DNA from: a virus
DNA length: 64,000 bases
Strand: one strand, 5' to 3'
Virus record (IMG/VR): IMGVR_UViG_3300021963_006415
Location: 1 to 64,000 of that record
Position 1 is the first letter of the stretch. Each line of letters opens with the position of its first letter. Positions 42,067-62,004 of this stretch are shown piece by piece. Below the pieces are notes generated by a model. That model was not told the DNA's origin. It ran no database searches and saw only the letters and a list, made by a program, of their open reading frames with translations. A program made the translations under genes and the position numbers.

Positions 42067-45000
42067 TTATTGATTTTCTAATTCTAAAATTCTTTCCTCT
42101 AATTGTTCTATTTTTATAAGTAATTCTTTTATAGCAGCTGTATTTAATGCTATTATTGCATTGTAATCTAATGATAATACATCGCTTAAATTATTTATAT
42201 TTCCTACATTTTTTATTAAAAATGGAAATTCATTTTGTACTTCTTGTGCTATGAATCCATATGAATCTCCCTTATCTGTCAATGGTGCAGTTATATCATT
42301 CCACAAAAATGATTTTGGATTTAACTTTTCAATTTTTACTAATGGAGATTCCAAATCTCTTATATTAGTTTTTAATCTTTCATCCGAAGATGATAGAACG
42401 GCAGATGTATATAAAGCTCCATTTATTCTAACATCTCCCAAAAATGCAGCACTATATGCAGTTCCACCTACTGTTGCAACCGGTCCGATTTGAGCAAAAC
42501 CACCGGCTGATGATACAATCATACCATTTACACCAATAGAAGTTTTTTCTTCTGCTGATGTTATATCAATTGTAGGAGAACCTCCGGTGATACCAGTCCA
42601 AGCAAATTGACCAGAAAGTGTTACTGAACCAAATGTGAAAGCAATATATTGAGATGATATTGTTCTCGAAATATCTACAACAGCATAATAAGTTCCACCC
42701 GATGTTAATCCTGAAAATGGTACTGCTGCCGTTCCTGCTGTTATAGCTGGGTGGGTGTATGGTGATGTTGCGGATGATAAATAATCACGTTGAGAGAAAA
42801 CCGTAACTGTTTTTGATGTAACATAAGAACCTCCCGATGTATATATTGTTACGGTAACTGTTTGTAGGGTAAGATTCTGAACACTTCTAAAATTTGCTAA
42901 AGTTTGATTCCATTGTGATTGACCTGGTACCGCAGTTCCCGTATATGGTACATTTACAATAATCGCAGTACCTCCTATTGTGAAGTTTCCAGTTGTGGCT
43001 GATGTACCAAAAGTATTACCTACAGTTTGTTGATAGTTAAAGCTACTAAATAGTGGATTTGCACTTGTATCGGTAGTACTTGGAAATGTCGCTGATGTAG
43101 ATGTGCTATTTGTTGATAAACTATCTTTTGTAATTTTAATTTTTTCAACACCACCACTTGATAATGTTATGTTACCATCGTTATACAATATAGTTTGACT
43201 ATTATTGGATGAAAGGGTTGTAGAACCAATCGTCCAACCACCAATAGTTCCCGATGTTGATTTTAAAACACCCGTTGGAGTTACACTAAATGGTGCGTTA
43301 GCAAATGTTATATTTCCTAAAGAAATTCCGCTTGAATTAGCTATAAAAATACTAGTAGTTCCACTACCAATAGAAATAGTTCCACCATTAAACGTTGAAG
43401 CATTCATAGTTCCGGTGATGGATAATGCACTTCCATTGAAAGTTAATTTATCTCCCAATGAAAATACATCGGTAGAACCGGATGCAAAATAAAATGGGGT
43501 ATCGGTATTATTATAATTTCCTGTACCTACAAATATTTTTTTATTAGTACCATCCAATGTAATACCACCACTACCAACTTTAAATACAGAAGAAATATAT
43601 CCAGCATTACCAGCTATAATTGGCGATGAAATTGATGTTGATGTTATAAACGTACCACTACCACCAACCCAACCACCATTTGCTAATAGGTTTACGGAAG
43701 CACTTGCAACGGCTAAAGCGTTTGAATTTGCAGTAGCAATAGCTGCTGCTTGTGCGGCACTAGCTGCATTTGAACCAGAAGTAACGGCATTATTTGCGGC
43801 AGTTTGAGCAAATAGTTGGGCTGCAGATGCTGATGCCGCAGCATTATTTGCGGCTGTTTGCCCAGCTAATGTAGCTGCTGTTTGAGCTGCTGATGCTGAA
43901 ATAGAACCCGATAAAGCTGCGTTTGAAGCGTATAGTGAGCCAGATGATACTGCGTTTGAGCCAACAGTATTTGCATATGTTTGTGTTGCCGCATCTCCAC
44001 CTGTAACACTAATAGAACCTTTTATTTCTAAATTAGTTCCTGTCCATTTTATATATGAAGTACTTCCATTTACAATACTAAATTTAGAAAGATTACTATC
44101 TCTACCCAAAAATATACCATCATTTGCATATCCTTGCGTTGTTTGGCCAACCGATAAATATGGATTTGTAGTGCCACCGGCAAGTGTGATATTTGCGGAT
44201 GAAACTCCACCACTATTATTAGTACCAATATTTAATGTACTTTGAACAAATGAATCTTCAAATAAACCTATTTTTGCTGCAACAAAGAAATCTTGTGTAC
44301 CTAAGTTTTCCCAACCCGTTTGTGCAGTTTGGTTTGGTGAGCCATCGGCTACGTTTCCTGTTGTGGATGTATGTTGTCTAATTGCTGCATAATAGTTTTC
44401 ATATGGTGCTACACCCGTTGGACTCCAAAGAACCACATCTCTGCGGCCTGTTCCTGCGCCCGTACTAAATTGGTAAGCTCTGTTAGCTTCCCAAACTCCT
44501 GTGAATACAACACCCGGACCTGTTTGACCATCTAATGTAACCGATACCGTATGTGTTTGAGAAACAGTTGCCGATGTACCGGCTGCATTTACATACACTA
44601 CATTGAAAGTCACAATTGTTCCAGCGGTTGTTGTTGGTGTTGTTGGTGTTATTGTTGCACCACTATTAGTACCACCTGATAACGATGTTATTCTAAATGT
44701 TGAATTTGCGTATGGCGATGAATCATCGTATGTGTATGTAGTACCTCCCTCAATTACACTAACAACAAATGAACCAGGCGTTCCATATGTTCCCGTATTA
44801 CTTCTCGTTACAATTTGTGATGCAGGATTTAAGTTTATTACAACCCCACTTTCACCTTGCTTTATTTTTGAAGCTCGTATTGTTATGGTTTGTGTTTGAC
44901 CCGTTGTACCTTCACTATCCGTATGCGTTACAGTCAATGTTACCGATGCTTCATCTGCATTCATTACCGCCGATGTCATTGTAAGTGTATTACTACTTAC

Positions 45001-48000
45001 AATTGGAGCGATTGAAAAGCCAGATGAAGAAGCAATAGCCATAGATGTAAATCTATTAGTTGTACCTTCTAAAGCCGTTATTGTAACGTTAGTAAGTGTG
45101 CCGGTTTGTGTACCAGCTGCATTTGCTGCAACAGTTTGTGATTGTGGAGTTGCTGAAATCGTAACGCTTGGTACTGCTTTTTTAACTTTAGTTAAAGATA
45201 TTGTATCACTTAAAGTTCTACTTTGTCCTTCCGAATCCGTAACTGATGCGGTAATTGCTACACTAGCAGCATTTGTTCCATTTGCTAAAGTTCTTCCTGC
45301 TAAAGTTACTAAACCTGTTGAATTATTTGTAACAATGTTTGCTAAATCAGAGCTACTACCACTCAATAGTATTAATCCTAAATTTGATGTAGAACCATTG
45401 TACGTTTCTGCGATAGTTACAACCGCATTTGCAAAAGAATCAATTTGTTCGCCAGTTGATTTTGCTGAAACAGATTGTGCTTTATTTGTTGTTGATAACG
45501 TTAAAGATGGTGCTGCTGCTTTTGCCTTTGAATACGTTACAACTTTTGTTATATCAGTTGAAGTTCCTCTACCATCTTTATATCTAACAACTAAACTTAA
45601 AGAACCACTATCAGCTGTTAATGATGTAATTCCATAAGTTGCGTCATCCGGCGTTGTATCATTTGGAGTACAATTTGTACCTGTTGCCGAAATTATATCA
45701 AATCTATTATTTGTTGATAATCCTTCTTCTCTTGTAATATCTTCACCACCTACTTTTACACTCACCGAACCACTTGTTGCAACGAATGAACCACTTGCTA
45801 CCCAACCCGTAGAACGTGCTGGCAAAGTTGCGTTTTCGTTTGTTAAATTTACTGATATTTGAGATTCAGCAATAACCGATGATAGTGTAACTTCGTCATT
45901 ATATGCGGTGCCATTTAAATCATATGCTGTAAATGTATATGTTTGTACGCCGGTACTATATTGGTAATTTGAGGATTGCCCAGCTGAAATTGTATAAGAT
46001 GTAACACCATTTCCTTCATAGTTTGGTGCTGATAAAGCAGGAACTCCACTACCGCTTGTTACAGTTATAGTATTTGTTAAACTTCCTAAGTTTAATCTTT
46101 TTGCTAATATTGTTATGGTTTGTGAAGATGGGATAGGCGATAAATCAGTCATTTTATAAAAAAACTGATTTGCATCCGATGTTGCTATTAATCCTTTACC
46201 CTTATCACCTTTTAATACTGCATCAATTGTTACCGATGAAGTAAAATCTCCATCAACAGTATCATATTTAAAATCATAATGGGATTGTCCAAAATCATAA
46301 ACATATCCACTTCCCGAAATTGGTGTTGCACTATATGGATGTGTAGATGAAGTTACAAATAATCTATAAACAGTCGCATTTCCAATACTTTCTATTTCAT
46401 GTAATGGTGGTGGTGTTCCAACTTCAGAGCCTGATGTGATATTAAATCCCTCATCTTCATATGATGGTAAATTTTGTCTTACCAAACGAATATCAATATA
46501 ATCATCGACTATATCCGATTTGTATCTATCATCCGGGTCAAATACAAAGCTATTTTTATCTGCCGTAGCATAAAATAATCTTGCAGGTGCACCTTGGTCT
46601 ATTCTAAAAATTGTAAAGTATCTATTAACATCTTCGCAACTGGCAGTATATGTAATTGCTCCAACAGTTACCCCTAAAGCAGAAGAACCTGTAAAGTTTG
46701 CTAAAGATAATGTTCTTGTATCAACATCGACATAATCTAATGTTCCGGGCTGCGGTGTTACTGTAATCAAATTTCCATTTACATCAACTGATTGTGATTG
46801 GAATGTAACAGAGCCAGTTAAACCTGTTTTTGTAAAATCAATTGTTACGAATTGTGGAAAAACAGATGCTGTTGAAAAGTTAAATGAATTATTAGAAACG
46901 TTTAATTGCAAATCTCTTCTAACATCAACATCATTACCACCACTAAAAGTAAATTCTTCTTCTAATAAAACGGGAACGTAATTGTTATTTATATCGTATA
47001 ACTCAAATTTAAAATCAAATGTTTCATTATTGATTTTAACAGGCACATTTACAGTCAATGTAATTTCATTTGGAGAAAAAGATGATTCTTGTGCCGCTCT
47101 TAAACTTATATCACTAATATGCCATACACCACCCTTTACAACATATACTAAATTACCAACACCATCCGAATCTGGTTTAAAGTTTATTTGTTGTTTATCG
47201 TATTTTCTAAATTGAGTATTTGTTGTTAAATCTCCAATTTTTTTTCCGTAGTTTGTTTCTAATGATGTTGGAGTAAACGCAGAACCACTCATATAAATTT
47301 CAATACCACCAAATGTATCAGCTGCCGCAGATAATAGTGGTGTAAAATCCAATTGATATTCTGTATTCTTTGTGAAGTTTATTGATTCTTTATTATAGAA
47401 CTTAAATAATCCAACCGATGAACTATAATCACTTTGTGGTGTTAATAAAACCGATTTTAAAAGAGTTGTATTATCAACACTAAGATTTACGCCGGTTTCT
47501 ATTGCCGATGATGTCCAAAATGATGATAATATAGCGTTGGTAAATAAACCGGTTCTAACATTTAGTTGATTTGCAAAAGATGATGTTAATAATAACTCAT
47601 TACTTTCTAATTGAACATCTTCTAATAATTGAAAATCTCCTAAATCATTTTTAGAACTCGCATAAACTTTGATTCGGTTTACATCACCACTAAATGTTTC
47701 TAAATCGGTAATATTAATTGTAGCAAATGATGAATTGATTGCTGAATCGGTTAATGTAACAGTTGCATCATATGACATTGTATATGATGCCGATGTAAAT
47801 GCGGTAACCGAATAATAATTTGGTAAAGATGAGCCTGTTATATAATATGGAACATCAACAAACGCTTTTTTGTTTGTTGTAACATCGGTTATAATTGGGG
47901 AGTATGATTTAGCTAATCCGTTTATTTGAATGGTTTCTCTTTCCATTGATTCGGAAAATTGAGATAATCCATTTAAAGATAGTTCGTATCGTGATACTCC

Positions 48001-48600
48001 TTTGAACGTTCTATAATCTTCCCCCGCTGATGGTAATGTTGGTGTACCATTTACTGAACCAGATATTGTTAATCTACTTACGTTTCTATTGTAGATTGGA
48101 AGTATTGATTCGCTTATATCGATTTTAGGTCTACGATAAAATCTTATTTTAGATGTATTTGCTAATATTGGGTTTACATTTATTTGCTTTTCCCATTTAA
48201 CATTATATGTATCTTTCCAATTTTCAGGAACAGGTATTGTAACTCCATTAAAATTATACTCACTTAATTCTCCTAATATTGTTATAGTGCAAGGACCAAA
48301 AGCAGTATCGGGGTATATGTAAACAGCAACAACTTTAGAAGTTCCTTCAAAATATTCAGGAATACCTTCGCCTGGTTCGTGATAAACTATTTTACCTTGC
48401 GAATCTCTGATTTGAATTTTTACAATTGTATCAGAAACCAATTCAGGAGAACCTTGAATAAGGAATGCGTTTTTACCTCCCGTAAAAGTATCGGGTAATT
48501 CTGTTATTTTAAAATATTTACTATTAGGGTCAGTATCGTTTACTAAAACATTAATTGTTTCTAAACTCTCATCAAAAAGGGTTTTCTTTAAAATTGCCAT
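42067..48600 (-). CDS. Long tail fibre/spike with C-terminal intramolecular chaperone (peptidase S74)
   Basis: 2177 aa, S/T/G-rich beta repeats, Ala-rich coil; C-terminal SSDERLKTNI...YGFIAQEV..FP..LDYN..AAIKEL. Confidence 0.88.
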   Translation of the reverse strand: MAILKKTLFDESLETINVLVNDTDPNSKYFKITELPDTFTGGKNAFLIQGSPELVSDTIVKIQIRDSQGKIVYHEPGEGIPEYFEGTSKVVAVYIYPDTAFGPCTITILGELSEYNFNGVTIPVPENWKDTYNVKWEKQINVNPILANTSKIRFYRRPKIDISESILPIYNRNVSRLTISGSVNGTPTLPSAGEDYRTFKGVSRYELSLNGLSQFSESMERETIQINGLAKSYSPIITDVTTNKKAFVDVPYYITGSSLPNYYSVTAFTSASYTMSYDATVTLTDSAINSSFATINITDLETFSGDVNRIKVYASSKNDLGDFQLLEDVQLESNELLLTSSFANQLNVRTGLFTNAILSSFWTSSAIETGVNLSVDNTTLLKSVLLTPQSDYSSSVGLFKFYNKESINFTKNTEYQLDFTPLLSAAADTFGGIEIYMSGSAFTPTSLETNYGKKIGDLTTNTQFRKYDKQQINFKPDSDGVGNLVYVVKGGVWHISDISLRAAQESSFSPNEITLTVNVPVKINNETFDFKFELYDINNNYVPVLLEEEFTFSGGNDVDVRRDLQLNVSNNSFNFSTASVFPQFVTIDFTKTGLTGSVTFQSQSVDVNGNLITVTPQPGTLDYVDVDTRTLSLANFTGSSALGVTVGAITYTASCEDVNRYFTIFRIDQGAPARLFYATADKNSFVFDPDDRYKSDIVDDYIDIRLVRQNLPSYEDEGFNITSGSEVGTPPPLHEIESIGNATVYRLFVTSSTHPYSATPISGSGYVYDFGQSHYDFKYDTVDGDFTSSVTIDAVLKGDKGKGLIATSDANQFFYKMTDLSPIPSSQTITILAKRLNLGSLTNTITVTSGSGVPALSAPNYEGNGVTSYTISAGQSSNYQYSTGVQTYTFTAYDLNGTAYNDEVTLSSVIAESQISVNLTNENATLPARSTGWVASGSFVATSGSVSVKVGGEDITREEGLSTNNRFDIISATGTNCTPNDTTPDDATYGITSLTADSGSLSLVVRYKDGRGTSTDITKVVTYSKAKAAAPSLTLSTTNKAQSVSAKSTGEQIDSFANAVVTIAETYNGSTSNLGLILLSGSSSDLANIVTNNSTGLVTLAGRTLANGTNAASVAITASVTDSEGQSRTLSDTISLTKVKKAVPSVTISATPQSQTVAANAAGTQTGTLTNVTITALEGTTNRFTSMAIASSSGFSIAPIVSSNTLTMTSAVMNADEASVTLTVTHTDSEGTTGQTQTITIRASKIKQGESGVVINLNPASQIVTRSNTGTYGTPGSFVVSVIEGGTTYTYDDSSPYANSTFRITSLSGGTNSGATITPTTPTTTAGTIVTFNVVYVNAAGTSATVSQTHTVSVTLDGQTGPGVVFTGVWEANRAYQFSTGAGTGRRDVVLWSPTGVAPYENYYAAIRQHTSTTGNVADGSPNQTAQTGWENLGTQDFFVAAKIGLFEDSFVQSTLNIGTNNSGGVSSANITLAGGTTNPYLSVGQTTQGYANDGIFLGRDSNLSKFSIVNGSTSYIKWTGTNLEIKGSISVTGGDAATQTYANTVGSNAVSSGSLYASNAALSGSISASAAQTAATLAGQTAANNAAASASAAQLFAQTAANNAVTSGSNAASAAQAAAIATANSNALAVASASVNLLANGGWVGGSGTFITSTSISSPIIAGNAGYISSVFKVGSGGITLDGTNKKIFVGTGNYNNTDTPFYFASGSTDVFSLGDKLTFNGSALSITGTMNASTFNGGTISIGSGTTSIFIANSSGISLGNITFANAPFSVTPTGVLKSTSGTIGGWTIGSTTLSSNNSQTILYNDGNITLSSGGVEKIKITKDSLSTNSTSTSATFPSTTDTSANPLFSSFNYQQTVGNTFGTSATTGNFTIGGTAIIVNVPYTGTAVPGQSQWNQTLANFRSVQNLTLQTVTVTIYTSGGSYVTSKTVTVFSQRDYLSSATSPYTHPAITAGTAAVPFSGLTSGGTYYAVVDISRTISSQYIAFTFGSVTLSGQFAWTGITGGSPTIDITSAEEKTSIGVNGMIVSSAGGFAQIGPVATVGGTAYSAAFLGDVRINGALYTSAVLSSSDERLKTNIRDLESPLVKIEKLNPKSFLWNDITAPLTDKGDSYGFIAQEVQNEFPFLIKNVGNINNLSDVLSLDYNAIIALNTAAIKELLIKIEQLEERILELENQ

Positions 48601-48623
48601 TGTATCTTTTTGGGGTTACAAAG

Positions 48624-48661
48624 ATAAATATTTCAAAAAAAATATTATCTTCATATTTATA
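48624..48661. promoter_or_regulatory. Divergent pair of ATATTTAT(A) motifs
   Basis: Minus-strand ATATTTAT at 48624-48631 faces the tail fibre gene; plus-strand ATATTTATA at 48653-48661 faces the small + strand gene. Confidence 0.6.
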
Positions 48662-48698
48662 TAAAGAAAACTAATAAAAACTAAAGAAATATAAAGTT

Positions 48699-48878
48699 AT
48701 GAAATACGCAATGTTACAAATAAAAAAAGAAACCCACGAACTTCTCAAACAATATTGTGAAGAACATGGGTTTAAGATGGGAAGTTTAGTTGAAAATTTA
48801 ATTAAGAAACACGTTGGTGTTACTAAACCTCAAGCGAGTGTGTTAAGAGCTGATAAGGTTAAAAATCAATCTTACTAA
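48699..48878 (+). CDS. Small ribbon-helix-helix-like DNA-binding protein (59 aa), absent from the ORF track
   Basis: Manual translation MKYAMLQIKKETHELLKQYCEEHGFKMGSLVENLIKKHVG...; strand-helix-G-helix pattern; own upstream motif. Confidence 0.65.
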   Translation: MKYAMLQIKKETHELLKQYCEEHGFKMGSLVENLIKKHVGVTKPQASVLRADKVKNQSY

Positions 48879-51800
48879 ATCCATCTATCTTTTTTATCTC
48901 TATCAATCCATCTACGATATCTCTCATTTGTTCTAAGTGAGAAATCATCCATATAAAATCGAATTGAGTTTTTAAATATTGCATCATCATAAATAATGAT
49001 GATAAGTTATTTGCATCCAACGTACCAAATCCCTCATCAATTACTAAGAAGTTAGGACGGGGCAGGTTACATATGTTAATCAGAGCTACTCTAATAGCCA
49101 AACCACTTACAAACTTCTCCATACCACTACACATTTCTAATGGCCATTCTTGGTCTTCGTAAACAATTTTTGCGTTAATAGATTTACCATCTATATCCAT
49201 TACGATACTAAAATCTACAACCTGCGCAAGTATATTATTGATTTCATTTTCAATAACAGGCATTGCTTTGGAAATGAGTTCGTATGGTACACCATCTCTC
49301 TTTACAGAATCGATATAATAGGTGTATAGGCGACTCTTTTCTTCCAATTCCTTAACTTCATCCATCTTATCCTTTACATTGTCTATAAACGATTGTATTT
49401 GAGTAATAGAGCTATTCAAATCAGATATTTGTTTGTTAAGCGATTTTACTTCGGATTCTATTTCACCTTTGGTTTTATTTAAACCTTCAATAACAGATTC
49501 TATTTGTTTATTACGTTTAATCGTATCTTCATTATCGTGATACTTTTGGATATCTGAATTTACTTGCTCCAATTGAGTGTCATACAATTGTTTTTGAGTT
49601 TCAAATCCATTTAATTCGGCAATTGTTTTTTCTTTAATTACAATTGCTTTCTGATATTTAGATTTTAACTCAACCAAATAATCCCATTGTTCTTCTACAT
49701 CCGCAATATAAGATGCCTGTTGAATTAGTGATTGGTGTTTGTTTCCTAATTCAGTTAATTTATCTTCTTGCTCTTCTACTTTAGATTTTGTTTCTAACGC
49801 ATCTTTTACGAATACGTTATTCATACAAAACTTACAGTTTGGGTCATATTCGTGTTGTTCCAAATGTGAAAGTTTTTCTCTATTGGATTCTAAAGATTGT
49901 TCTAATAACTGAATTTGATGTTCAGTTTCATTTATCTCACTTTTATACTCATCCCATTCCTTCTTAGCATCTTCGATTGGTTTACCATTAATAGTTTTGT
50001 GTTCTTCAATCGATTGTGATATTTCGGAAATACTTTGTGTGTATTCATCTAATTTTGCTTTCTTATTTTTTTCTTCTGAAAGAACATGTAGAATATCAAA
50101 TCCAATTTGATTCTTTTTCTTTTCCAATTTATCTAAATCTAAATTTGCATCTACTGGCACCAACTCTTTTGTTAATCCCAATATTCTATTAGATAAATCT
50201 TCTACATCATTTGCTTTTGTTTCTAATTCCTTTTCTTTTGCTCTTAATTCTGATTTCTTTGTTTGCTTTTCTAAACCCTTTTCAGCCAACTCTGTCGTAA
50301 AGTCGGTTTTCTTAAAATTTTTGATAAGTACTGCTACTTCCTTAATATCCTCACTTGCAGTTTCATACAATTTATCGAATATATCTAACCCCATAAATTG
50401 TGCCAATAAATCCTTACGTTCACTTTGTGATTTATCAATGAATAGTGCATTGTTACCTTGCAAACTCAATGCAGTTAATACGAAATCTTCGTACTTACCA
50501 ACGTATTGTTCAATTACTGCGTTTGTATCTCTTCTCTCCGTTCCGTTTAGAGATGTGATTGTACCACCTTCATCTTTCCAAAATTGTACATCTACTTTAA
50601 CGTTCTTTCCTTTGTTAATCGTTTTAGCAGTTCTACTAATATGAAAATCTATTCCATTTACTTGGAAGTGTAAGTTACATTCGAAATCCTTTTTACGATT
50701 GTTCATAATGTGAGTAGCCTTAAATGCTCTACTACACTTATCAAACAAACAAAAGGAGATTGCATCAAATAGGGATGATTTACCACTAGCGTTTGGTGCG
50801 AATAATCCCATTAATCCTCCTACTTTTGCGAAATCTATTTTATTATTTTCACCATAGGAGAACATATTACTGAATGTAAACTTTATAGGTTTCCAATGTA
50901 TGTTCCTATGTACTTCTTCTTGCGTTATTCTGCTATTGATATCTCTATTGATTGCTTCTAAACCATCTAAATCCGCAGTGGTTGTAAATGGCATCATTCT
51001 TTGAACATAATCCTTTATCAATGTGTTTTGATAGTTGATATCGGATATATCTTCAAAATCTAATTTGTTTAATCTATTACCTGTCTTTTGTTTTGAGAAT
51101 GAATCAGTTCTGATAATTGTAAAATCATCAACACCATATCTCATTTTGATTTCGGTAATTACTTTCTTTGTATCGGCAGTATCAGTATTTGATAAACGAA
51201 CTCTCAATCGAGGGAACTTTGGCATATCCGTTACAACTGGTACTACACCATTATCTACATCCAATGTATAATATCCATAATCATTTGGAATATCTATTGC
51301 TTCGTATTTTAAAGATGCAACATCCCAAATAAGGAATCCGTGTCCGTTTAAACTCTCACCAAAGTTTTGTTGTACCAATGAACCGGCGTAAACTACTTTA
51401 CATCCGCTTGGAGAAATCATAGTTTGTCTTTTATGAATATCACCTAATAAGGCTAAATCATAACCATCAAACATATCCGTTGTAAAATGTCTACTACTTA
51501 CTACATACCCCACGTCTGTCATTGAATTATCAACTGGTCCGTGAAATAATGCAATCTTTTTGTTTCCAAATAGTGTTTCTGCTTTTGGCCAATTATCTTT
51601 TTTATCAAAGATACTGAATACAGCAAAATCAACCCCACCTAACGAATATACTTGCGTATCTTTAAGATAGTGAAAATTTGGTAGGTTTAAAGCCTCTACG
51701 ATTGGAGTAAGTACATCCAAACGGTCAGAGTTGTTCATATTACAATCGTGATTACCTGCAATCAAAATTGTTTCACAATGTTTAGAGCATTCGGTAAATA

Positions 51801-52002
51801 ACCAACTAATCTCTTTCACCAATTCCGGTGACATTTCCAATTTAGCATGTGCAATATCACCTGCTAAATAAATGATTGAATCTTCCGTACCTCTTTTACG
51901 GATTTCTTCAAACATCTTTTCAAACACTGCTCTATACTCTTTGTGCCTTTGTACGTTACGAATATGAATATCCGCAATATGGTAAATTCTTTTTAAACTC
52001 AT
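48859..52002 (-). CDS. Fused Mre11/SbcD nuclease - Rad50/SbcC ATPase (T4 gp47-gp46-like)
   Basis: ADIH, GDIAH, GNHD, LFHG, GDIH; Walker A NASGKSS; Zn hook CKFC; SGME; LVIDEGFG. Confidence 0.92.
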   Translation of the reverse strand: MSLKRIYHIADIHIRNVQRHKEYRAVFEKMFEEIRKRGTEDSIIYLAGDIAHAKLEMSPELVKEISWLFTECSKHCETILIAGNHDCNMNNSDRLDVLTPIVEALNLPNFHYLKDTQVYSLGGVDFAVFSIFDKKDNWPKAETLFGNKKIALFHGPVDNSMTDVGYVVSSRHFTTDMFDGYDLALLGDIHKRQTMISPSGCKVVYAGSLVQQNFGESLNGHGFLIWDVASLKYEAIDIPNDYGYYTLDVDNGVVPVVTDMPKFPRLRVRLSNTDTADTKKVITEIKMRYGVDDFTIIRTDSFSKQKTGNRLNKLDFEDISDINYQNTLIKDYVQRMMPFTTTADLDGLEAINRDINSRITQEEVHRNIHWKPIKFTFSNMFSYGENNKIDFAKVGGLMGLFAPNASGKSSLFDAISFCLFDKCSRAFKATHIMNNRKKDFECNLHFQVNGIDFHISRTAKTINKGKNVKVDVQFWKDEGGTITSLNGTERRDTNAVIEQYVGKYEDFVLTALSLQGNNALFIDKSQSERKDLLAQFMGLDIFDKLYETASEDIKEVAVLIKNFKKTDFTTELAEKGLEKQTKKSELRAKEKELETKANDVEDLSNRILGLTKELVPVDANLDLDKLEKKKNQIGFDILHVLSEEKNKKAKLDEYTQSISEISQSIEEHKTINGKPIEDAKKEWDEYKSEINETEHQIQLLEQSLESNREKLSHLEQHEYDPNCKFCMNNVFVKDALETKSKVEEQEDKLTELGNKHQSLIQQASYIADVEEQWDYLVELKSKYQKAIVIKEKTIAELNGFETQKQLYDTQLEQVNSDIQKYHDNEDTIKRNKQIESVIEGLNKTKGEIESEVKSLNKQISDLNSSITQIQSFIDNVKDKMDEVKELEEKSRLYTYYIDSVKRDGVPYELISKAMPVIENEINNILAQVVDFSIVMDIDGKSINAKIVYEDQEWPLEMCSGMEKFVSGLAIRVALINICNLPRPNFLVIDEGFGTLDANNLSSLFMMMQYLKTQFDFIWMISHLEQMRDIVDGLIEIKKIDGFSKIDF

Positions 52003-52940: not shown

Positions 52941-52944
52941 AAAC

Positions 52945-52985: not shown

Positions 52986-53396
52986 TTATAAGAACCATTC
53001 TTCTGGTATTTCTTTATCTGCGTATTTAAATCCGTTCTTTTCGCACCAATCTGCGTAGGTGGTTTTGGATTTTTTATTGATTTTATTCTTAGAGTTTGTA
53101 AAAACGAATCTGATATCCAATTCTGGATGTTGTTGTTTAACTAATAGGTGCTTTTTTCTATCTGCTATAACAAATCTACCTTTAGTTTCTATAATAATTC
53201 CATTTGGTAACTTAAAATCAGGATTGTAAGTATGTTCAGAAGCAGGTATAATATAAGCCACCTTTTCGGATTCATATTTAACCTCAATTCCTTTGCTTGC
53301 AATTTGATTGGAAATATTTTCTTCAAGACCGGATTTAAATCCATACTTTTTAGCAACCCATTTAGAGTTGGACTTTTTTGTAACTTTTTTTGGCAT
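52986..53396 (-). CDS. Endonuclease I / Holliday junction resolvase (T7 gp3-like)
   Basis: FKSGLE, YNPDF.LPNGIIIETKGRF...RKKHLL, DIRFVF, TTYADWC. Confidence 0.92.
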   Translation of the reverse strand: MPKKVTKKSNSKWVAKKYGFKSGLEENISNQIASKGIEVKYESEKVAYIIPASEHTYNPDFKLPNGIIIETKGRFVIADRKKHLLVKQQHPELDIRFVFTNSKNKINKKSKTTYADWCEKNGFKYADKEIPEEWFL

Positions 53397-53613: not shown

Positions 53614-53641
53614 AGTTTCTATTGTTTAATATAAATATAAG

Positions 53642-54838
53642 TTAAGTATCAAAACGAACAATAAAGTTTACAGGCAATTCAGGGTCTGACTTAATTGGTT
53701 GTGGTAATTTAGCTACCGCCACTAAATCACAATTATCATCGTATAATCCTATTGTAGTTATAAATGGTGCTAAGAAAGAACCTGTACTATCTACCGAACT
53801 ACTAGCTTCCCAATGTTCAAATCCAGCTTTTGCGCTTCCCGTAGTTCCACTAAATCTATAATCTAAAATATCTCCATTTTCTAATATAGATTTTTTACGA
53901 ATGTATTTTACACCAGGATTTGTTGTTACTTTTCTAACTATACCATTGGTATCTACATATGTAGAAGTTTCTGCACCAACAACCTCTACTGCTGATGGGT
54001 TTTGTGAAACGTTAAATTCATCGGGCTGAACTATTAATAAGAATTCGTTTTCATAAATGGTTTCGGTTGATTTATAATCTAAAGTCCAACCACTATTTAA
54101 TCTATTAGCTGCATCTCTCGTTAGTACTATCAATCCTTGTGTATAGAATACATTACCTATTTTTATACCCTGTGCTGCATCTGGTAAGAATGGTAAATCA
54201 TCTGCAATCAATACTCCTGATTGTACATCGTATGATATTAATTGTTGAAAATATGTAGTACCATCCCATAAAATTCTTATTTCTTCGTTTTGAATATCAA
54301 CAAATACAGTTGTTGGGTATGGAGATGAAGCACTATATTCATTATTAATATAATCTATAAAATTTATCTGATTTGTTTGATTATCTATTAGTGATAAAAT
54401 TATACTATCTCTTGGGTCTTGTATATTACCATATCCATCATCTACATAAGTGGTAGATGAATCTACTAATGTAACTGAAAACTTTTTTATACCTTCACCA
54501 ACTGCAATTTGTGGAATACTTATTACTTTTGCATAATCCTCTATATATCTTTCTTTAGCTAATGTTGCCGTTTCGTAATAATTTTTTTTAGAACCAAATC
54601 TTAAAAATGGATTATCTTCATTACCATTATAAAATTGTCCTTTAAGTTGCCCGTAAACGGATACTCTATTATATTCAGAACCACTTAAATATCCTTCGGA
54701 TACAGACGCAGTTGTGTTATTTGAATATAAAATATTTTCTGCTTCAAAAACTGAAGCATTGGAAGTTGCTCTATCCCACTCTTTATAAGCCTTAAAAGGT
54801 CTTATACTAATATCCGATTTTGGTATTCTTTTTAACAT
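53642..54838 (-). CDS. Virion structural protein (tail/baseplate-associated)
   Basis: C-terminal PFITTIGLYDD..DLVAVAKL motif shared with 54932..56146. Confidence 0.6.
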   Translation of the reverse strand: MLKRIPKSDISIRPFKAYKEWDRATSNASVFEAENILYSNNTTASVSEGYLSGSEYNRVSVYGQLKGQFYNGNEDNPFLRFGSKKNYYETATLAKERYIEDYAKVISIPQIAVGEGIKKFSVTLVDSSTTYVDDGYGNIQDPRDSIILSLIDNQTNQINFIDYINNEYSASSPYPTTVFVDIQNEEIRILWDGTTYFQQLISYDVQSGVLIADDLPFLPDAAQGIKIGNVFYTQGLIVLTRDAANRLNSGWTLDYKSTETIYENEFLLIVQPDEFNVSQNPSAVEVVGAETSTYVDTNGIVRKVTTNPGVKYIRKKSILENGDILDYRFSGTTGSAKAGFEHWEASSSVDSTGSFLAPFITTIGLYDDNCDLVAVAKLPQPIKSDPELPVNFIVRFDT

Positions 54839-54863
54839 ATCACATATAAATATCTTTCAAACT

Positions 54864-54890
54864 AAAAACCCAACTTTTTTGGAGTTGGGT
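54864..54890 (-). terminator. Rho-independent terminator
   Basis: Minus strand ACCCAACT-loop-AGTTGGGT followed by TTTT, downstream of 54932..56146. Confidence 0.7.
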
Positions 54891-54931
54891 CTAGCCTATA
54901 CATTGATAGTTCGATATAAGTTACTCTCTGA

Positions 54932-56146
54932 TTAAAAGTCCAATTTAACCTTAATTGCAACTTCCTTATCAAATGATTTTTCAATTGGTTTAGATACCTT
55001 TGCTACTGCTAATAATTCATTAGCATCATCGTAAAGACCTACAGTAGTAATGTACACTTTAGGGTCTCTTTCAAAAGTAGGTTGAACAAATTGTCCAGTT
55101 GAGCCGGTTACAAATGTTGGGTTGTTTGAGAAATTGAATTCTCTATTGTTAGCTCTTACGAAATAATGTGAAGTAGAAACGTTTTCAGTTCTACGAGCTT
55201 GGAAATCTTCTCCTTTTTTCAATGCACCAAATAAATTGTGCATATTAGTTACGTTACTATATGTGTTAGCTGCCGATGCTGAAACAAATGTTGTTCCAAC
55301 GCCTGCTCTAACAGCTGCTGGGTTTAAGATGATAACTCCTGCATCAGGATAGAATAATCCCCATCCTTGTCCGTTTGAAGCGGTTGTTGAATTGATTGTA
55401 CCTTCGTTGCCTGTACCAATGTTCAATGCACCACTTACCATATTAAATACCCTACCGCTTGAACCAACAGTTTCAACTTGGCCAGAATCATCAATTAAAG
55501 TTACTAATCCAGCTGAACCTGATAAACTTATTTGAATGTTACCTGGGTCTAATTTTTCTTTGTATCTAGCTCTATTGATGTTTAATGCGTAGAAGTGTTC
55601 TAAATCATGTCCACCTTCAGTAGACCCATTATAAACACTAAAATATGTATCACCACTATCTAACAATAAATTTCTCATTTGAGAATAGATAGCTTTAGTT
55701 GCTAAAGTAGAACTATCCGTTTGAGATAATGTTGGTACACCACCACCACTAATATGTGCGTATGCTATTGAAAACTGCACTTCTGCTGATGCTGATGTGT
55801 AGTGTTCGTTGTAAACATCTAAATAGTATTTACCACTTACAGAAGAACTTTGCTCTGAAGATGAATAGAAAGCGGTTAAAGAACCAGCATCACCACTCCA
55901 AATACCAGAAGTTACAACTTCTGTTCTATTTGTTACTTTATCAATAGCACCGAATTTTTTGTAAATACCATTTGTTACAGTAGTTACATCGGCACTGATT
56001 TGTTCACCTTGTCCTAAGAATTGGTTTACAATGTTTACTAATTCGTTTGTATCAACGGGAGTACCTGCGGTGTTAGCTGCACCTGCAAGATATTGTGATA
56101 AATTACTTGCTAAAAGGGCTCCTCTATTATCTCTTATTACTGCCAT
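54932..56146 (-). CDS. Virion structural protein (tail/baseplate-associated)
   Basis: EFNFSNNPTF, VYITTVGLYDDANELLAVAKV; paralogous C-terminus with 53642..54838. Confidence 0.6.
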   Translation of the reverse strand: MAVIRDNRGALLASNLSQYLAGAANTAGTPVDTNELVNIVNQFLGQGEQISADVTTVTNGIYKKFGAIDKVTNRTEVVTSGIWSGDAGSLTAFYSSSEQSSSVSGKYYLDVYNEHYTSASAEVQFSIAYAHISGGGVPTLSQTDSSTLATKAIYSQMRNLLLDSGDTYFSVYNGSTEGGHDLEHFYALNINRARYKEKLDPGNIQISLSGSAGLVTLIDDSGQVETVGSSGRVFNMVSGALNIGTGNEGTINSTTASNGQGWGLFYPDAGVIILNPAAVRAGVGTTFVSASAANTYSNVTNMHNLFGALKKGEDFQARRTENVSTSHYFVRANNREFNFSNNPTFVTGSTGQFVQPTFERDPKVYITTVGLYDDANELLAVAKVSKPIEKSFDKEVAIKVKLDF

Positions 56147-56154
56147 AGTTTATA

Positions 56155-56778
56155 TTATTGAACGTATGTTACTGTTACTGGAATTGTTTGTGAACCACCA
56201 GTTTCGTTACCATAAACAGTTATAGTTGTTTTGATAGTCGAAGTTAATGATGGGTTTGGAATAAATTTGAAAGTTAAACCCTTAGCTACTGCTGCTGTTG
56301 CTGATACATCATCACCAATAAAGATAGGTACAGTACCTACATCAGCGGTTACACCTTCACCTACAATATCACCAGCGTTTTTATTTGCTAATACGATTGT
56401 ATATCCTAATCTTCTATTTCCGGCAGGAGATGTAGTTGGAGATAATGAAACCTCACCACTTCTTTGATTTACTGCTACATTAGGAACACCAAATTCTACA
56501 ACTGGGATTCTTGTAGTATTTTTTGGAAGTGTTACGATTTTATATTTCATCACTTGAGTTTCATCAGGCGATGCTTCTAATACTGGCATATTTTTGATTG
56601 CTGCATCATAGTAAGCAGAACCCAATGGATGTGCTGGCTCATATAATGAATAATCTATCTCATCATCTGCTAAGGCAAATTGGGTAATATTTAAACCCAA
56701 ACCTGCTGCTAATTTTTCTCTACCTTTTTTAGTAAGAATTGCATCAACTGTCAATTCATTATTACTTAAATATCCCAT
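56155..56778 (-). CDS. Virion structural protein (tail collar/baseplate-like)
   Basis: DAILTKKGREKLA...ITQFALADDEIDY resembles tail-collar N-termini; Ig-like C-terminus; tandem ATATTTATA at 56800-56814. Confidence 0.55.
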   Translation of the reverse strand: MGYLSNNELTVDAILTKKGREKLAAGLGLNITQFALADDEIDYSLYEPAHPLGSAYYDAAIKNMPVLEASPDETQVMKYKIVTLPKNTTRIPVVEFGVPNVAVNQRSGEVSLSPTTSPAGNRRLGYTIVLANKNAGDIVGEGVTADVGTVPIFIGDDVSATAAVAKGLTFKFIPNPSLTSTIKTTITVYGNETGGSQTIPVTVTYVQ

Positions 56779-56826
56779 AGTTTTTTAATTATCTTTGTTT
56801 ATAAATATAAATATTTTAAAATTCCG

Positions 56827-59800
56827 TTATTCCACTTCCAATATTGGTTCACTTGCATCTCTACCCGCTTTATTAACTCTCAACGTATTTGGATTTGTTA
56901 AGAATGTTTCAACAGGAGGAGTACCATCCAATGTAGTTGCTGCCGTATTTTTTGAACCATTATAAAACGAATTTTGTAATCCTCTAGTTAAATCGGATGT
57001 ATTTCTATAATGCGTTTTTAAATATCCATTCAATGGAATTACTTCCATATTTGCATTTGATGATGTAAATTGATGTGAACCACTAAATGGTTGTATATTT
57101 AATTTTGTTTCAATATAAGTGTCCGTTCCAATTTTGTTATAAAGTCCACTAACTCCTACACTTCCTGTCAAATATACATATTCTCTAGTCTTTGTTTCTT
57201 TTATAATTTGAACTCTAACTCTTTCTTTTTTAAGATTACCATCTTTATCATAGTATGTTCTTATAGCAGAACCACTTTGTGCATAAATACCAAATCCAAC
57301 ATTCTCATAATCACTTTGCCCAACTACAACACTACTATTTATTAAATCTATTTCGGTTAATATAGTTGGTTCGTTAAACATAGAACCTATACTAGCCGTA
57401 TATTGATATGAATTACCTTCTAATATTGAAAACTCTTTTGCATCTATTGTAGATATGTGTTGATAAGATTCCCCATCTAATATTGCTGCTGAAGCAGATT
57501 GTATAGTTGATGTATATTGGTTATTTTCACCAATCAATGAATATTCACTTTCGGTATCTAATACAACATCGTATTGAGTATATTCAGCAGAAAGTAATTC
57601 ATTACCATATTGTATTACGGATTCATAATTGTTATGCTCACCAACTGGTTTTGAATATTGATGTTTACTTCTTTCTAAAATATGTGGTTCTATTAAAAGA
57701 CCGGTACTTGCTTTAACTCTTGCAGGTAACATCTTCTTAATATCTTCAAACATAGATTTCTCATATAGTTTGATTAAGTTGATGTATGAATAAATATCTC
57801 TGCCATCGAATCTTTGGAAATAGTAATGTCTTAACTTATCCAAATTTCTATAACTATCTTTATATCTATCCGATGGGTCACCAATGTAGTTATCCAAATT
57901 AATTCCACCAAACGATTTAGCAATATCAATATTCAACTCTTTTGTAGGAGAGAAGAATAAACCAACTCTATTTGAATCGGTTGGAGATTGGTCAAATGCT
58001 TTTTTAGTTGCTCTACCTTTTGATGATAAATCAGAAACTAATGTTTGCTCCTCAAATCTAACTTTATTAGTTGAATAACGAGATGAGCCCATATCAGGAA
58101 CTTCTAGCACAACACTTCTATCGATTGCCTCAAATTGATATGGATAATTTGGCTGTGCATTAAATCCTGCTACACTTGCGGAGAATGAAGCTGATGGATT
58201 AATTGAATACAAATCGGTTGAACTACCGCTTTCATAAGCTGCTCTATCAGAACCTTCAGCAAAGTAAATGTTTGTATCTACGTTTGGTAATGTTTGGAAT
58301 ACTGACAAATCTTTTGGATATTCAAAATCTAAACGGAAATGTAAATCATCGGTTGAAGATGAAATATGATTACCATTAATCATTTCAGGGAATGAAACGT
58401 GCTCATAGAATCTTTCTTTATTTAATGGCGTAGACCATAAACGGAATTCATCTGTTGTTCCAACAAAGTCATTACCAAATCTTATATTAGAACCATTGTT
58501 CCAATTTGAATTGGTTGCTAAAACGCTTATTGTTTTAGAGTCTTCAAATATAGTTCTATCTTTATCTGCTTGTCTTAAATTTAATTCAAAGTTATGATAG
58601 CTAGAACTAACTTCTCTACTAACTTCTACACCAAAAAATCTACCATTAAATATTGGTAATAATGATGATGATATTGCGTTTGAGCCCGAATAGTTTAATA
58701 TTACTCTACCATAATTTTGATTAGTAGAACCACTTATATGTACTCCCCAACCACTACCAGAAACAATATTATATTCACCGGCTACGGATGGTTTTACAAA
58801 AAATTCTATTGTATCTGGTTTTCTATTTTGATTTGTATTAAGCCAATCTATTGATATATAAGAGCCGTTATTCATTTTTAAACCATAAGTTAGATTATCA
58901 AATACTAACTTCGATTTACCAACTTCACTAACTTCCGGTCCCCCAAATTCTAAAATTGAAAGATTTGATGATGGAATACCATAACAACTTAATAGTGCAT
59001 ATATACCCCTTCTTGTACCTTTATGTTTTAATAGGTAAGGTAAGTTATTTACAATTCTTCTCCAAACTTCATATGTTCTTTGTTTAGCAGGATTTTCGTT
59101 TTTAATATTACCATCTACATCTATGCCAAATGCATATTCCCAAAGTTTAGAATCTGCTGCAAGATTTTTTGCATCCCAATTGAATGATTTAAGAATATCA
59201 AATAACAATTTATCTGATACGCCATCTTTTGCTTTATATCCCAGCCCTCTACTCCTTTCAATTGCTTTAGTGTGGAAGTAAATGTTATCAAAATGTTGAC
59301 CAACCATTGTAAAGAATAACGTAAATTGGTCATTTATTTCATTATTAACAATATATTCAGGTATGTTATTTAAAACATAATTTGGATTTTCAATATCAAA
59401 ATCTTCTGCTAAAGTTATTATATTATCATACCAAGGAGTAACACTTGCAGTATCAGATGAACTCAATCTAATATTGCCATTATAAGGCCATCCCATAGAA
59501 GATGATTCGTATAAGAATTTCTCAAATCCATCAAAACCAGCTATTAATGTATCTTTTTTAGATTGCTGTCTTTGTCTTTCTTGTATAGCAGATATTGAAC
59601 CTGTATGTGAGCCGGATAAAGGAGCTGAGCCTGTTAGGTATGTATTATTAAATGCCGTTTCATATACTTCAATTAATTGAACCTTATAAACAAAATTATC
59701 AACTCTTTCTTTAGCTGAACTAAAATGTACAAAGTTATTCCATAGATAGTCCGAACCGCTAGCATATTCCACATTTAATTCATCGGTATTTATTAAAGAT

Positions 59801-62004
59801 GATGTTAGGTATGTGGAAACTAATTGAGCCGATGATGTTGAACCACTTAATATAAGATTATCCAATGATTCATAAGTAGTAGATTGACCACTTACAAAAT
59901 CAGCATCAATATTAAAATTTGGTCCCTTTATTGGAGGGCATTTAACATCATCTTGCTCTGTAAGAACTATTGTTTCAATTAGTGGATTGGACATTAATTT
60001 GGTAATCCACAATGTAGAATTTACAGAAATGTTAGGATTTAAAGGCGTGTATAATTTAAGAATTAAAGAATCTACTTCATTAGTTATCTTTACGTTTCCT
60101 ATTTCATCTGTTTCTTTTTTCGATAAAGTCCAATTATCATTTTCCCAAGAAGAAATTAATATCTGCTCATCGTTACCAAAATTTGTTAAATGAGATAAAT
60201 ACTTATTTTCTTTTTCGGGTTCGATTACACTTAATTTTTCTGCAAAAGCATCAAATATAACAGTTGAGAATATATTTTCATCAAATTGAAATGCAGGTAA
60301 TCCTAAAGTAGTTATTACCTCATATTCGTTACCAATAAGTTCTTCGGCACCACCTCTATTAAATGGTTTAAATACTAAAGTTACGTTATCGCTTCCTGTC
60401 CAATTTGGAAACTTTTCTCTTAGAGTTTTTAAGTTTATTAAAACTTCTCCATTTGGATTTAAGTTTTTAAATAAACCTATTCTTCTTTTATCTTTTAGTA
60501 ATAAATCTACATCAATAGTTGTTGTTGAAAACGATGTATATTCTACTTTGTATTCTATATTAAAATCTGAAAACGATGGTACATCTATGTTTTGTGGAAA
60601 ATTTATTTCTGTAATTGATGGAAAATCGTTTACAGAATTAAAAGTAATTATTGAAGTAGCAGAATCACCTGTTCCGTATTTATCACTTTTAGCTAATAAT
60701 ACTACTTTTTTACTTCCGTAAATTTCACCAAAATCTTTTTTAAATGATAGTGTTATATATTCATTAGATGCTGGTATTGTTATTACTTCATCATTTCCAT
60801 TAATGTAAATTAATATATTATCAGCGTTTTGCGTTTTAAATGGAATAGAAATAGTTTTATCATCATCCGATTCTTTTACTTGGACAGATATTTGTTTATA
60901 TACATCATTTATTTCAATAGAAGGTCTTTCTACTTGTATTTCTTTTTCAAAAAGAGTTACAACCGATATGCCTGTTTTTAAAGATTGACCTGGTACACTA
61001 AAAACAGATGATTGACTAGTCCATTTACTATAATCAGAATCGTTTACCCCAGCTAATGCTGATGGGTTTGATGTTTGATATATGTTCTTTAAAAAATAGT
61101 TAGATGGTAAATTGTTGTATCTTATTTTAAAATCAACCCTACTATTATTTAAAGTATTTAAATCTATTTGTTTTATAGTATTTCCCGTCTCTAAATCAAT
61201 AGAACCTTCTCCTATTATATTGCCATTTGAAGAAAATATTGTATAATCTAATATTACATTTTTTCCTAATTCATTTTTTAAATTAGAAGAAAATCCAATT
61301 TCATATTCAACCATTTGTTGGGTTGGAGTTATTTGGTCTATTGGATTTACAACATCAATCGGAAAGTTTTTTTGTATAGGTTTTAATGTAAACGTTAATG
61401 GAACGCTACCAAAATTAAATGTTCTACTATCGGCAAATTGATATGTACCATCCGATTGTAATTGCCACTCTCTTAATGTTAATATTTCAGAGTAACTATA
61501 ATCGATGGCTGTTACGTTTGGTGTTATATTATAGTTAAATCCATAGTAACCATAATCATATCTGTTATAACCATAAAAATCATAATTTGTTGGTTGATAT
61601 GTGTTATAGTATGTATAATTTTGTGGTTGATATGTCTTTGTTACTTCTACCTCAAAATATTGATTTGGTAAAGTACCCTCTTTTCTAACCTCATATCTTT
61701 TAATACCATTAAATGTACTAGATGGAGAATATGTTATAGTATTTGAAATACCATATCCTTTGTTTATACCATTTTCTAAAAATTCTACTTCACCACTATT
61801 TGATAATAGAGTTATTGTTATAGAATTATTAGTTATTTGATTTGTATAATTAGTTGGTACATACGTTGGATTTGGGGTAACAGGTGGTACATAACCTCCT
61901 CCACCTCCACCACCTCCATTTATAAAAGCAGTGTAATTACCATATCCATCATATGAATTCAAAGTTGGTTCTCCACCAAATATATTTTCTAATGCTGCTA
62001 TCAC
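56827..62004 (-). CDS. Large baseplate wedge-like structural protein with LamG-like domain
   Basis: LLKHKGTRRGI (KGT motif of P2 gpI-like baseplate proteins), DTIEF..DEFRLW LamG-like region; ATATTTATA at 62019-62027. Confidence 0.6.
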   Translation of the reverse strand: MIAALENIFGGEPTLNSYDGYGNYTAFINGGGGGGGGYVPPVTPNPTYVPTNYTNQITNNSITITLLSNSGEVEFLENGINKGYGISNTITYSPSSTFNGIKRYEVRKEGTLPNQYFEVEVTKTYQPQNYTYYNTYQPTNYDFYGYNRYDYGYYGFNYNITPNVTAIDYSYSEILTLREWQLQSDGTYQFADSRTFNFGSVPLTFTLKPIQKNFPIDVVNPIDQITPTQQMVEYEIGFSSNLKNELGKNVILDYTIFSSNGNIIGEGSIDLETGNTIKQIDLNTLNNSRVDFKIRYNNLPSNYFLKNIYQTSNPSALAGVNDSDYSKWTSQSSVFSVPGQSLKTGISVVTLFEKEIQVERPSIEINDVYKQISVQVKESDDDKTISIPFKTQNADNILIYINGNDEVITIPASNEYITLSFKKDFGEIYGSKKVVLLAKSDKYGTGDSATSIITFNSVNDFPSITEINFPQNIDVPSFSDFNIEYKVEYTSFSTTTIDVDLLLKDKRRIGLFKNLNPNGEVLINLKTLREKFPNWTGSDNVTLVFKPFNRGGAEELIGNEYEVITTLGLPAFQFDENIFSTVIFDAFAEKLSVIEPEKENKYLSHLTNFGNDEQILISSWENDNWTLSKKETDEIGNVKITNEVDSLILKLYTPLNPNISVNSTLWITKLMSNPLIETIVLTEQDDVKCPPIKGPNFNIDADFVSGQSTTYESLDNLILSGSTSSAQLVSTYLTSSLINTDELNVEYASGSDYLWNNFVHFSSAKERVDNFVYKVQLIEVYETAFNNTYLTGSAPLSGSHTGSISAIQERQRQQSKKDTLIAGFDGFEKFLYESSSMGWPYNGNIRLSSSDTASVTPWYDNIITLAEDFDIENPNYVLNNIPEYIVNNEINDQFTLFFTMVGQHFDNIYFHTKAIERSRGLGYKAKDGVSDKLLFDILKSFNWDAKNLAADSKLWEYAFGIDVDGNIKNENPAKQRTYEVWRRIVNNLPYLLKHKGTRRGIYALLSCYGIPSSNLSILEFGGPEVSEVGKSKLVFDNLTYGLKMNNGSYISIDWLNTNQNRKPDTIEFFVKPSVAGEYNIVSGSGWGVHISGSTNQNYGRVILNYSGSNAISSSLLPIFNGRFFGVEVSREVSSSYHNFELNLRQADKDRTIFEDSKTISVLATNSNWNNGSNIRFGNDFVGTTDEFRLWSTPLNKERFYEHVSFPEMINGNHISSSTDDLHFRLDFEYPKDLSVFQTLPNVDTNIYFAEGSDRAAYESGSSTDLYSINPSASFSASVAGFNAQPNYPYQFEAIDRSVVLEVPDMGSSRYSTNKVRFEEQTLVSDLSSKGRATKKAFDQSPTDSNRVGLFFSPTKELNIDIAKSFGGINLDNYIGDPSDRYKDSYRNLDKLRHYYFQRFDGRDIYSYINLIKLYEKSMFEDIKKMLPARVKASTGLLIEPHILERSKHQYSKPVGEHNNYESVIQYGNELLSAEYTQYDVVLDTESEYSLIGENNQYTSTIQSASAAILDGESYQHISTIDAKEFSILEGNSYQYTASIGSMFNEPTILTEIDLINSSVVVGQSDYENVGFGIYAQSGSAIRTYYDKDGNLKKERVRVQIIKETKTREYVYLTGSVGVSGLYNKIGTDTYIETKLNIQPFSGSHQFTSSNANMEVIPLNGYLKTHYRNTSDLTRGLQNSFYNGSKNTAATTLDGTPPVETFLTNPNTLRVNKAGRDASEPILEVE

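Follow-up and report, generated by a model that had tools for sequence, protein, structure and literature searches.

Here we examined a short peptide motif that recurs through the tail proteins of an uncultured freshwater phage. The source is IMG/VR record IMGVR_UViG_3300021963_006415, a 92.6-kb virus contig (a partial genome), the first 64 kb of which were analyzed and are referred to below as the window. The outer tail and fiber proteins of the window phage and of its relatives carry the tripeptide [ST]-[GA]-S at 3–6 times the chance rate. This excess is clade-wide and confined to outer tail proteins (tail, baseplate, and fiber), the clade being a large, aquatic, distantly T4-like one that takes in the window phage, Microcystis phage Mel-JY01, Flavobacterium phage immuto, and Rhodothermus phage RM378. 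A preliminary description of this DNA had proposed [ST]-G-S as a possible glycosylation sequon, the acceptor for an adjacent sugar island. Both a real, tag-like motif and a genuine sugar and glycosyltransferase (GT) island are present, whereas the proposed link between the motif and the GT7 enzymes of that island is not supported. Judging from the sequences, the motif may instead be a modification tag, probably for O-glycosylation in which a conserved enzyme would start the sugar and variable islands would extend it, and we give this reading a probability of roughly 0.4.

Four tail proteins of the window carry the motif (Table 1). The 2177-aa long tail fiber contains 16 [ST]GS tripeptides against 5.8 expected (p = 0.001), together with 7 [ST]AS, and the 1725-aa baseplate or outer-tail protein contains 13 against 2.1 (p < 0.001), together with 5 [ST]AS. 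The 398-aa tail protein has 3 [ST]GS and 2 [ST]AS, and the 404-aa tail protein has 2 and 3, respectively. These recounts agree with the numbers given at first by eye (about 16, about 13, and 5 for the two smaller proteins together), as do the absence of [ST]GS from terminase, portal, and Mre11-Rad50 and the single copy in a 1342-aa protein. Taken together, the 34 [ST]GS sites of the four proteins compare with 8.9 in whole-protein shuffles and 10.0–10.2 in shuffles within 60-, 30-, or 15-residue blocks (p < 0.002). Since the excess survives even the 15-residue blocks, it goes beyond composition, and a locally S/T/G-rich sequence is ruled out as its cause. SGS accounts for 24 of the sites against 4.6 expected (z = 9.7) and ranks first in over-representation among all tripeptides, with TGS at 10 against 4.4. 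The [ST]AS variants, already noticed as numerous, are also in excess at 17 against 7.6 (p = 0.001), and no enrichment was found in these four proteins for SGT, TGT, SSG, GSS, SGN, or SDS. The 34 sites are encoded by 24 different codon triplets, which places the signal at the protein level and rules out a DNA-level cause. On the contig beyond the window, a 361-aa baseplate open reading frame (ORF; 64570–65655) has 4 sites against 0.47 expected, and a 383-aa ORF has 1. The tripeptide second in over-representation in the 1725-aa and 2177-aa proteins is HIS (5 against 0.27), as in HISGS.

We next describe the anatomy of the motif in a pool of 47 enriched tail ORFs (33.5 thousand amino acids) from four genomes. 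Because these ORFs were picked on [ST]GS, the enrichment of Ala-centered words is the independent result: SAS occurs at 3.0 times expectation (P = 5e-22) and TAS at 3.4 times (P = 2e-23). Among Gly-centered words, SGS (5.9 times) and TGS (4.6 times) alone stand out. SGT, SGN, SGD, NGS, DGS, AGS, and VGS are near 1 (0.6–1.3 times, with SGT at 0.9, SGN at 0.7, and SGD at 1.2), S-G-x words in which x is not Ser lie at 0.5–1.2 times, and SNS, SKS, SDS, and SES are depleted. The flanks are also specific. The residue before the tripeptide is Ile, Val, Leu, or Phe at about twice background and is hydrophobic in 62% of cases, compared with 39% in the background, and the residue after it is preferentially Leu, Val, or Ile and hydrophobic in 56%. 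Lys and Pro fall to about 0.1 of background directly after the tripeptide, and Asp falls to about 0.3 there and at position -3. The motif is sharper than first stated, reading hydrophobic-[ST]-[GA]-S-hydrophobic with a strict Ser after the Gly or Ala. It does not match the profile of a canonical Gly-centered beta-turn, in which nothing can replace Gly and the next residue can equally be Ser, Thr, Asn, or Asp. The 461 motif sites comprise 349 distinct contexts, ruling out a few repeated modules as the source of the excess, and the motif is found in non-homologous proteins, including a LamG jelly roll and the 21-residue repeats of a relative's fiber. We tentatively regard it as a short linear motif under selection in outward-facing tail proteins.

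The distribution of the motif extends well past the window. All 71 full-length orthologs of the 1725-aa protein in IMG/VR (49–82% identity) have 4–17 sites, compared with about 2 expected. Two complete relatives, of 209 and 245 kb, have 19 and 14 significantly enriched ORFs, respectively, all of them tail or fiber. Arrays of consecutive fiber genes are among these, with 28 sites against 3.2 (P = 3e-17) in one instance, and the remaining ORFs are at expectation. The other 647 ORFs of the four pooled genomes likewise have the motif words at 1.0–1.2 times. Mel-JY01 has its core and tail module in common with the window phage at 27–60% identity, and both Mel-JY01 and immuto encode homologs of the 1725-aa protein at 27–31% identity (31% for immuto). 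The same excess is found in their syntenic baseplate and fiber genes, with [ST]GS counts of 11 against 1.3, 9 against 0.6, and 26 against 5.9 expected. The excess in RM378 is moderate and involves five ORFs, with a cluster of four at 66–76 kb. Gp34–37 of T4 are not enriched, and 25 of 31 distant long fibers that share only the S74 domain have ratios near 1 (SGS 1.4 times and TGS 1.0 times in these 25), which rules out a generic fiber property as the cause.

Some further features of these fibers were observed. The distant S74 fibers prefer SGT (2.0 times) over SGS (1.4 times), and words of the form hydroxyl-Gly-hydroxyl may vary by lineage. An 894-aa fiber of the complete relative G003 (143931–146615) contains 28 [ST]GS, many of them in 21-residue tandem repeats with the motif at a fixed phase. 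Its N-terminus reads RRG-SGS; many fiber N-termini read RRGT-A. In the linear record of Mel-JY01 (PP395634.1), the fiber homolog (187738–190001) reaches the end of the record, and a plus-strand, S/G-rich ORF with 37 [ST]GS at 635–3052 overlaps an annotated minus-strand coding sequence at 739–2298. The fiber gene of Mel-JY01 may therefore wrap around the record ends, and the 739–2298 annotation may be wrong.

The sugar island lies directly against the fiber gene on the same strand, with the fiber stop at 42067 and the end of the adjoining island gene at 42065. Its Pfam content includes three nucleoside diphosphate (NDP)-sugar epimerases/dehydratases, RmlC, a nucleotidyltransferase-kinase fusion, fragments of a thiamine pyrophosphate enzyme, a radical S-adenosylmethionine (SAM) protein, a methyltransferase, DUF-type GT-like proteins, and three GT7N+GT7C+LamG_3 fusions. 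The three GT7 enzymes had been recognized from the sequence, and all are bona fide by Pfam gathering scores, at 45.6–79.5 bits for 7N (cut-off 27) and 28.9–67.3 bits for 7C (cut-off 23), with Laminin_G_3 above its cut-off in each. A 105-aa ORF separates the second and third of these genes, and eleven island ORFs have no Pfam match at E up to 0.01 (for example, 23985–25430, 25414–26208, 29257–30153, and 40360–41349). No polytopic membrane protein was found in 14742–42065, and no flippase, polymerase, or oligosaccharyltransferase-like membrane protein. On its own, the island therefore lacks the means to flip, polymerize, or ligate a glycan carried on lipid, and the absence of such membrane proteins suggests that the acceptor is cytoplasmic.

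It had been suggested that [ST]GS is the acceptor sequon for the three GT7 enzymes of this island, in the manner of the proteoglycan linker on Ser-Gly. The position of the island beside the fiber gene would fit, as would the presence of GT7-LamG in every complete relative of the narrow clade; homologs were found at 246 IMG/VR loci and at none of 50,697 cultured phage records. However, the motif excess does not follow the enzymes. No island gene has a match in Mel-JY01, where the GT7C domain is missing too, and a generic epimerase is all that immuto has in common with the island. Both phages are equally or more enriched, so the motif does not depend on this island; RM378 also shows its excess despite lacking GT7 enzymes. 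In proteoglycan linker synthesis, it is a GT14 xylosyltransferase (XYLT1/2) that reads the peptide, at an acidic S-G-x-G with Ser before Gly, and B4GALT7 acts next, galactosylating xylose without reading peptide. The phage system is like this one in its GT7-family fold and in having Ser beside Gly. It is unlike it in that the strict Ser follows Gly or Ala, Asp is depleted nearby (at -3 and +1), no GT14 or Branch domain was found in Pfam scans of the island ORFs, and the motif persists without GT7. The analogy fails in every testable feature, and we consider a GT7 acceptor site very unlikely. Some GT cluster is nevertheless present in each of Mel-JY01 (6 kb), immuto (11 kb), RM378, and Pelagibacter phage HTVC008M (small), and the sugar genes of RM378 comprise a putative GT4 pair and a homolog of UDP-galactopyranose mutase. 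Since Mel-JY01, immuto, and RM378 carry these other sugar-gene clusters, glycosylation as such is neither refuted nor demonstrated by the comparison.

A better candidate for an initiating enzyme would be one conserved across all motif-bearing lineages, rather than the GT7-LamG set. A tandem GT4 pair (GT-A, 460 aa; GT-B, 421 aa) and a neighboring 207-aa GT2 are shared by the complete relatives G001 and G003, Mel-JY01, and immuto at 37–64% identity. The pair alone is at 43–64% between the complete relatives, Mel-JY01, and immuto, which is above most of their structural proteins. In RM378, GT-A alone was matched (26% identity); a similar-sized ORF immediately follows. All 7 narrow-clade records with a completeness of 90% or more contain GT-A. 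Among solved structures, GT-A is closest to the chlorovirus glycosyltransferase B736L (E = 3e-10), and no solved relative was found for GT-B. In Mel-JY01, the first gene of the pair is annotated as two ORFs.

From the observed motif, its specificity and distribution, and the gene content, we infer the following chemistry. The serines that the motif marks would sit in tight, exposed links joining residues packed into the core. They would be modified in the cytoplasm by soluble phage enzymes, before or during tail assembly, most plausibly by O-glycosylation. The GT4 pair, with the neighboring GT2, is the best candidate for the initiator, and the hypervariable island beside the fiber gene, including GT7-LamG, could then build or tailor strain-specific outer sugars. 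In full, this would amount to a sequon-directed glycan coat on the tail, in which the conserved soluble pair starts a sugar on the tag serines and the hypervariable islands extend it, with the address tag written dozens to hundreds of times into the outward-facing tail and fiber proteins of the clade. We hold this complete version to be possible, though less likely than not. Such a coat on phage tails would be new to description. Literature searches for an SGS-type sequon or for glycosylated phage fibers returned nothing relevant, and no paper describing the motif in phage proteins was found.

Several observations weigh against a modification tag. The 92.6-kb contig, only part of the genome, does not carry the GT4 pair. 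The pair and the motif co-occur within one super-lineage only, and their association is not phylogenetically independent. The fibers of HTVC008M have an intermediate excess of about 2.5 times, yet this phage lacks GT-A. GT-A passes the Pfam "GT4-conflict" cut-off and in RM378 sits among replication genes, so its target could be DNA. Avoidance of the motif in non-target proteins was looked for and not seen, with observed counts close to expected throughout the rest of the proteome. The preference for hydrophobic residues at -1 and +1 and the avoidance of Lys, Pro, and Asp just after the motif would also be shown by a turn. These last two points suit a purely structural micro-motif that carries no modification, either a two-residue beta-hairpin or a small inward residue between two exposed hydroxyls. 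Such a unit would recur in the fiber and baseplate folds of the lineage, inherited and spread by domain shuffling among fiber genes, and we regard it as a serious possibility.

The predicted structure also counts on this side. We modeled residues 690–1310 of the 1725-aa protein with AlphaFold2 (AF2), using 72 orthologs. The LamG/ConA-like jelly roll at about 1034–1299 was predicted with a local confidence score (pLDDT) above 90 and has Foldseek matches to neurexin LNS and pentraxin; LamG_3 was detected in 12 of the 72 orthologs. All three of its sites, SGS 1082, 1091, and 1106, are in this single confident model predicted at strand ends or hairpin turns (pLDDT above 90), where they occupy the final residue of a strand and the link of two to six residues that leads into the one after it. 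Confidence is low in the segments holding sites 720, 749, and 791–801. The fiber of the relative with the motif every 21 residues, a periodicity that itself favors structure, gave a single-sequence model with a mean pLDDT of 37 that could not be interpreted. Across the 72 orthologs, motif sites fill 57 alignment columns, eight of which show conservation in half or more of the sequences, and about half of the sites are positionally conserved across 50–80% identity. The columns fall into three classes: those in which SGS is kept as a unit, those in which Gly is kept with Asn, Val, Thr, or Ser before it, and those in which S-x-S is kept with Gly, Ala, or Ser at x. In the many columns of the second class, Gly appears to be the conserved element, as a turn would have it.

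Other evidence does not fit a turn. Motif Gly is overall no better conserved than other Gly (0.69 against 0.74). Ala substitutes for Gly with the same flank specificity, which a positive-phi turn would forbid, and Thr, Asn, and Asp after Gly are unenriched, though they are usual in such turns. Between orthologs that are 76–80% identical, 14 of 26 site columns are invariant, and in the remainder SGS or SAS is swapped with AEG, QPN, ITT, NTY, or KVL, positions at which the alignments give no evident need for a turn residue. A structural unit also sits poorly with the missing excess in most distant fibers and in those of T4, and with the LamG domains of the island enzymes, which contain no motif sites, though fewer than 1 would be expected. 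Residue specificity, the Ala variant, turnover of sites, and restriction to outer proteins together favor the modification tag.

The motif may also serve some other function in the outer tail, either as hydroxyl pairs for binding water or host polysaccharide, or as a tag for a different modification or an assembly chaperone. Its limitation to receptor-facing proteins would agree with such a role, and the strict two-hydroxyl pattern with a small center resembles the T-x-T type surface ladders of beta-solenoids. In most of the proteins, however, the sites are scattered rather than arrayed, and we think this explanation improbable.

If the motif is a modification tag, then phage tails would bear a map of their glycan coat that can be read from the genome. 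Sequence could then serve to predict receptor binding, resistance to proteases and grazing, and how phages compete with one another in lakes and oceans, and the "lipopolysaccharide (LPS)-like" islands of aquatic myophages would be reassigned from host-surface conversion to self-decoration. A purely structural motif would still mark the outer tail proteins of this lineage sharply, and it would caution against inferring sequons from composition. Immuto, Mel-JY01, and RM378 are cultured carriers of the motif, which makes the question directly testable by mass spectrometry.

Every examined window gene of at least 100 codons is on the minus strand, and GC content is about 30%. The contig encodes a T4-type portal, a prohead protease, and a large terminase, as well as a fused Mre11-Rad50, a primase, and a T7-type endonuclease I. 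The single-chain Mre11-Rad50 fusion (1047 aa, 48859–52002) and the endonuclease (52986–53396) lie amid the tail genes, and the same order of Mre11-Rad50, endonuclease I, and tail genes is found in Mel-JY01. The 1342-aa protein (10540–14568), with its one [ST]GS, has a cytidylyltransferase-like domain at its N-terminus, along with a weak match of metalloprotease type, and its C-terminal third is 35% identical to a Mel-JY01 protein annotated as "cytidylyltransferase like protein".

Table 1 Features of the window and locations of the GT4 pair in related genomes.
Feature	Genome	Position	Strand	Remarks
Sugar-synthesis and glycosyltransferase island, 27 kb	Window	14742–42065	-	Soluble; directly downstream of fiber gene
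Three GT7N+GT7C+LamG_3 fusion enzymes	Window	34053–35525, 35529–36956, 37288–38742 (span 34053–38742)	-	Pfam
Long tail fiber, 2177 aa	Window	42067–48600	-	C-terminal Peptidase_S74 intramolecular chaperone (Pfam PF13884, E = 3e-14); PHROG long tail fiber distal subunit
Tail protein, 398 aa	Window	53642–54838	-	Weak Mel-JY01 homolog
Tail protein, 404 aa	Window	54932–56146	-	41% identity to Mel-JY01 protein
Baseplate or outer-tail protein, 1725 aa	Window	56827–62004	-	131 homologous IMG/VR loci
LamG/ConA-like jelly-roll domain, residues ~1034–1299 of 1725-aa protein	Window	58108–58905	-	Predicted (AF2 model, Foldseek)
First part of next baseplate genes, running past window end	Window	63416–64000	-	
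GT4 pair	G003	195136–197785		
GT4 pair	G001	59350–62005		
GT4 pair	Mel-JY01	83441–86302		
GT4 pair	immuto	49128–51883		
GT4 pair, putative (GT-A and similar-sized ORF)	RM378	9165–11893		

Among known systems, two-residue beta-hairpin turns with Gly first in the loop resemble the motif in the placement of the three jelly-roll sites at strand ends or hairpin turns. They differ in that Ala-centered variants of the phage motif are equally enriched, whereas Thr, Asn, and Asp after Gly are not. The GtfA/GtfB pair, an O-linked N-acetylglucosamine transferase of serine-rich-repeat adhesins, may be compared with GT-A and GT-B, which are likewise a tandem pair of predicted GT-B fold, one member with a degenerate signature, in lineages where the candidate targets contain S-small-S words. 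Unlike GtfA/GtfB, the phage pair lies off the contig and its putative targets are not long Ser-rich repeats, and sequence comparison of GT-A and GT-B with the GtfA/GtfB chains in the PDB gave no match at E up to 1.

Two phage systems are also relevant. In pelagimyophages and cyanomyophages, the host recognition cluster and its islands of LPS genes are read as modifying the host O-chain for superinfection exclusion (PMC7029224). Like that cluster, the window has a hypervariable island rich in GT, radical SAM, and sugar-nucleotide genes beside its tail fiber genes, and the gene content of this island differs from that of Mel-JY01 and immuto. Unlike it, the window island has no membrane or export component, and no fiber motif is described in PMC7029224. 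For mycobacteriophages, virion glycosylation is established, and the structural proteins are reported to receive sugars from glycosyltransferases that the phage itself encodes (Freeman et al. 2023, Cell Host Microbe, as cited in PMC12619734), with glycans on the C-terminal ends of capsid and tail-tube subunits (PMC12619734). As far as that citation describes the system, it is like the window island in using soluble phage-encoded glycosyltransferases, here without export machinery, and unlike it in that the window motif is internal, multi-copy, and limited to baseplate and fiber proteins.

The closest mechanistic precedent, by analogy, appears to be TibC/AAH. These soluble cytoplasmic enzymes heptosylate serines, not threonines, of the beta-helical adhesins TibA and AIDA-I, at Ser before Gly or Ala (PMC4358343). 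The phage motif differs in needing a second Ser after the small residue, and its targets are virion proteins. No match to Glyco_transf_9 (GT9-type heptosyltransferase) was found by Pfam among the window's ORFs, and eleven of the island ORFs match no Pfam family at all. What the two systems would have in common, on the phage side from genes alone, is a large number of Ser sites in S-G or S-A context on beta-rich, fibrous surface proteins. The predicted geometry may be compatible: the TibC/AAH type of site is a Ser in a short connection between beta-strands, and 3 of 3 sites in the LamG model, one predicted domain, would fit this arrangement.

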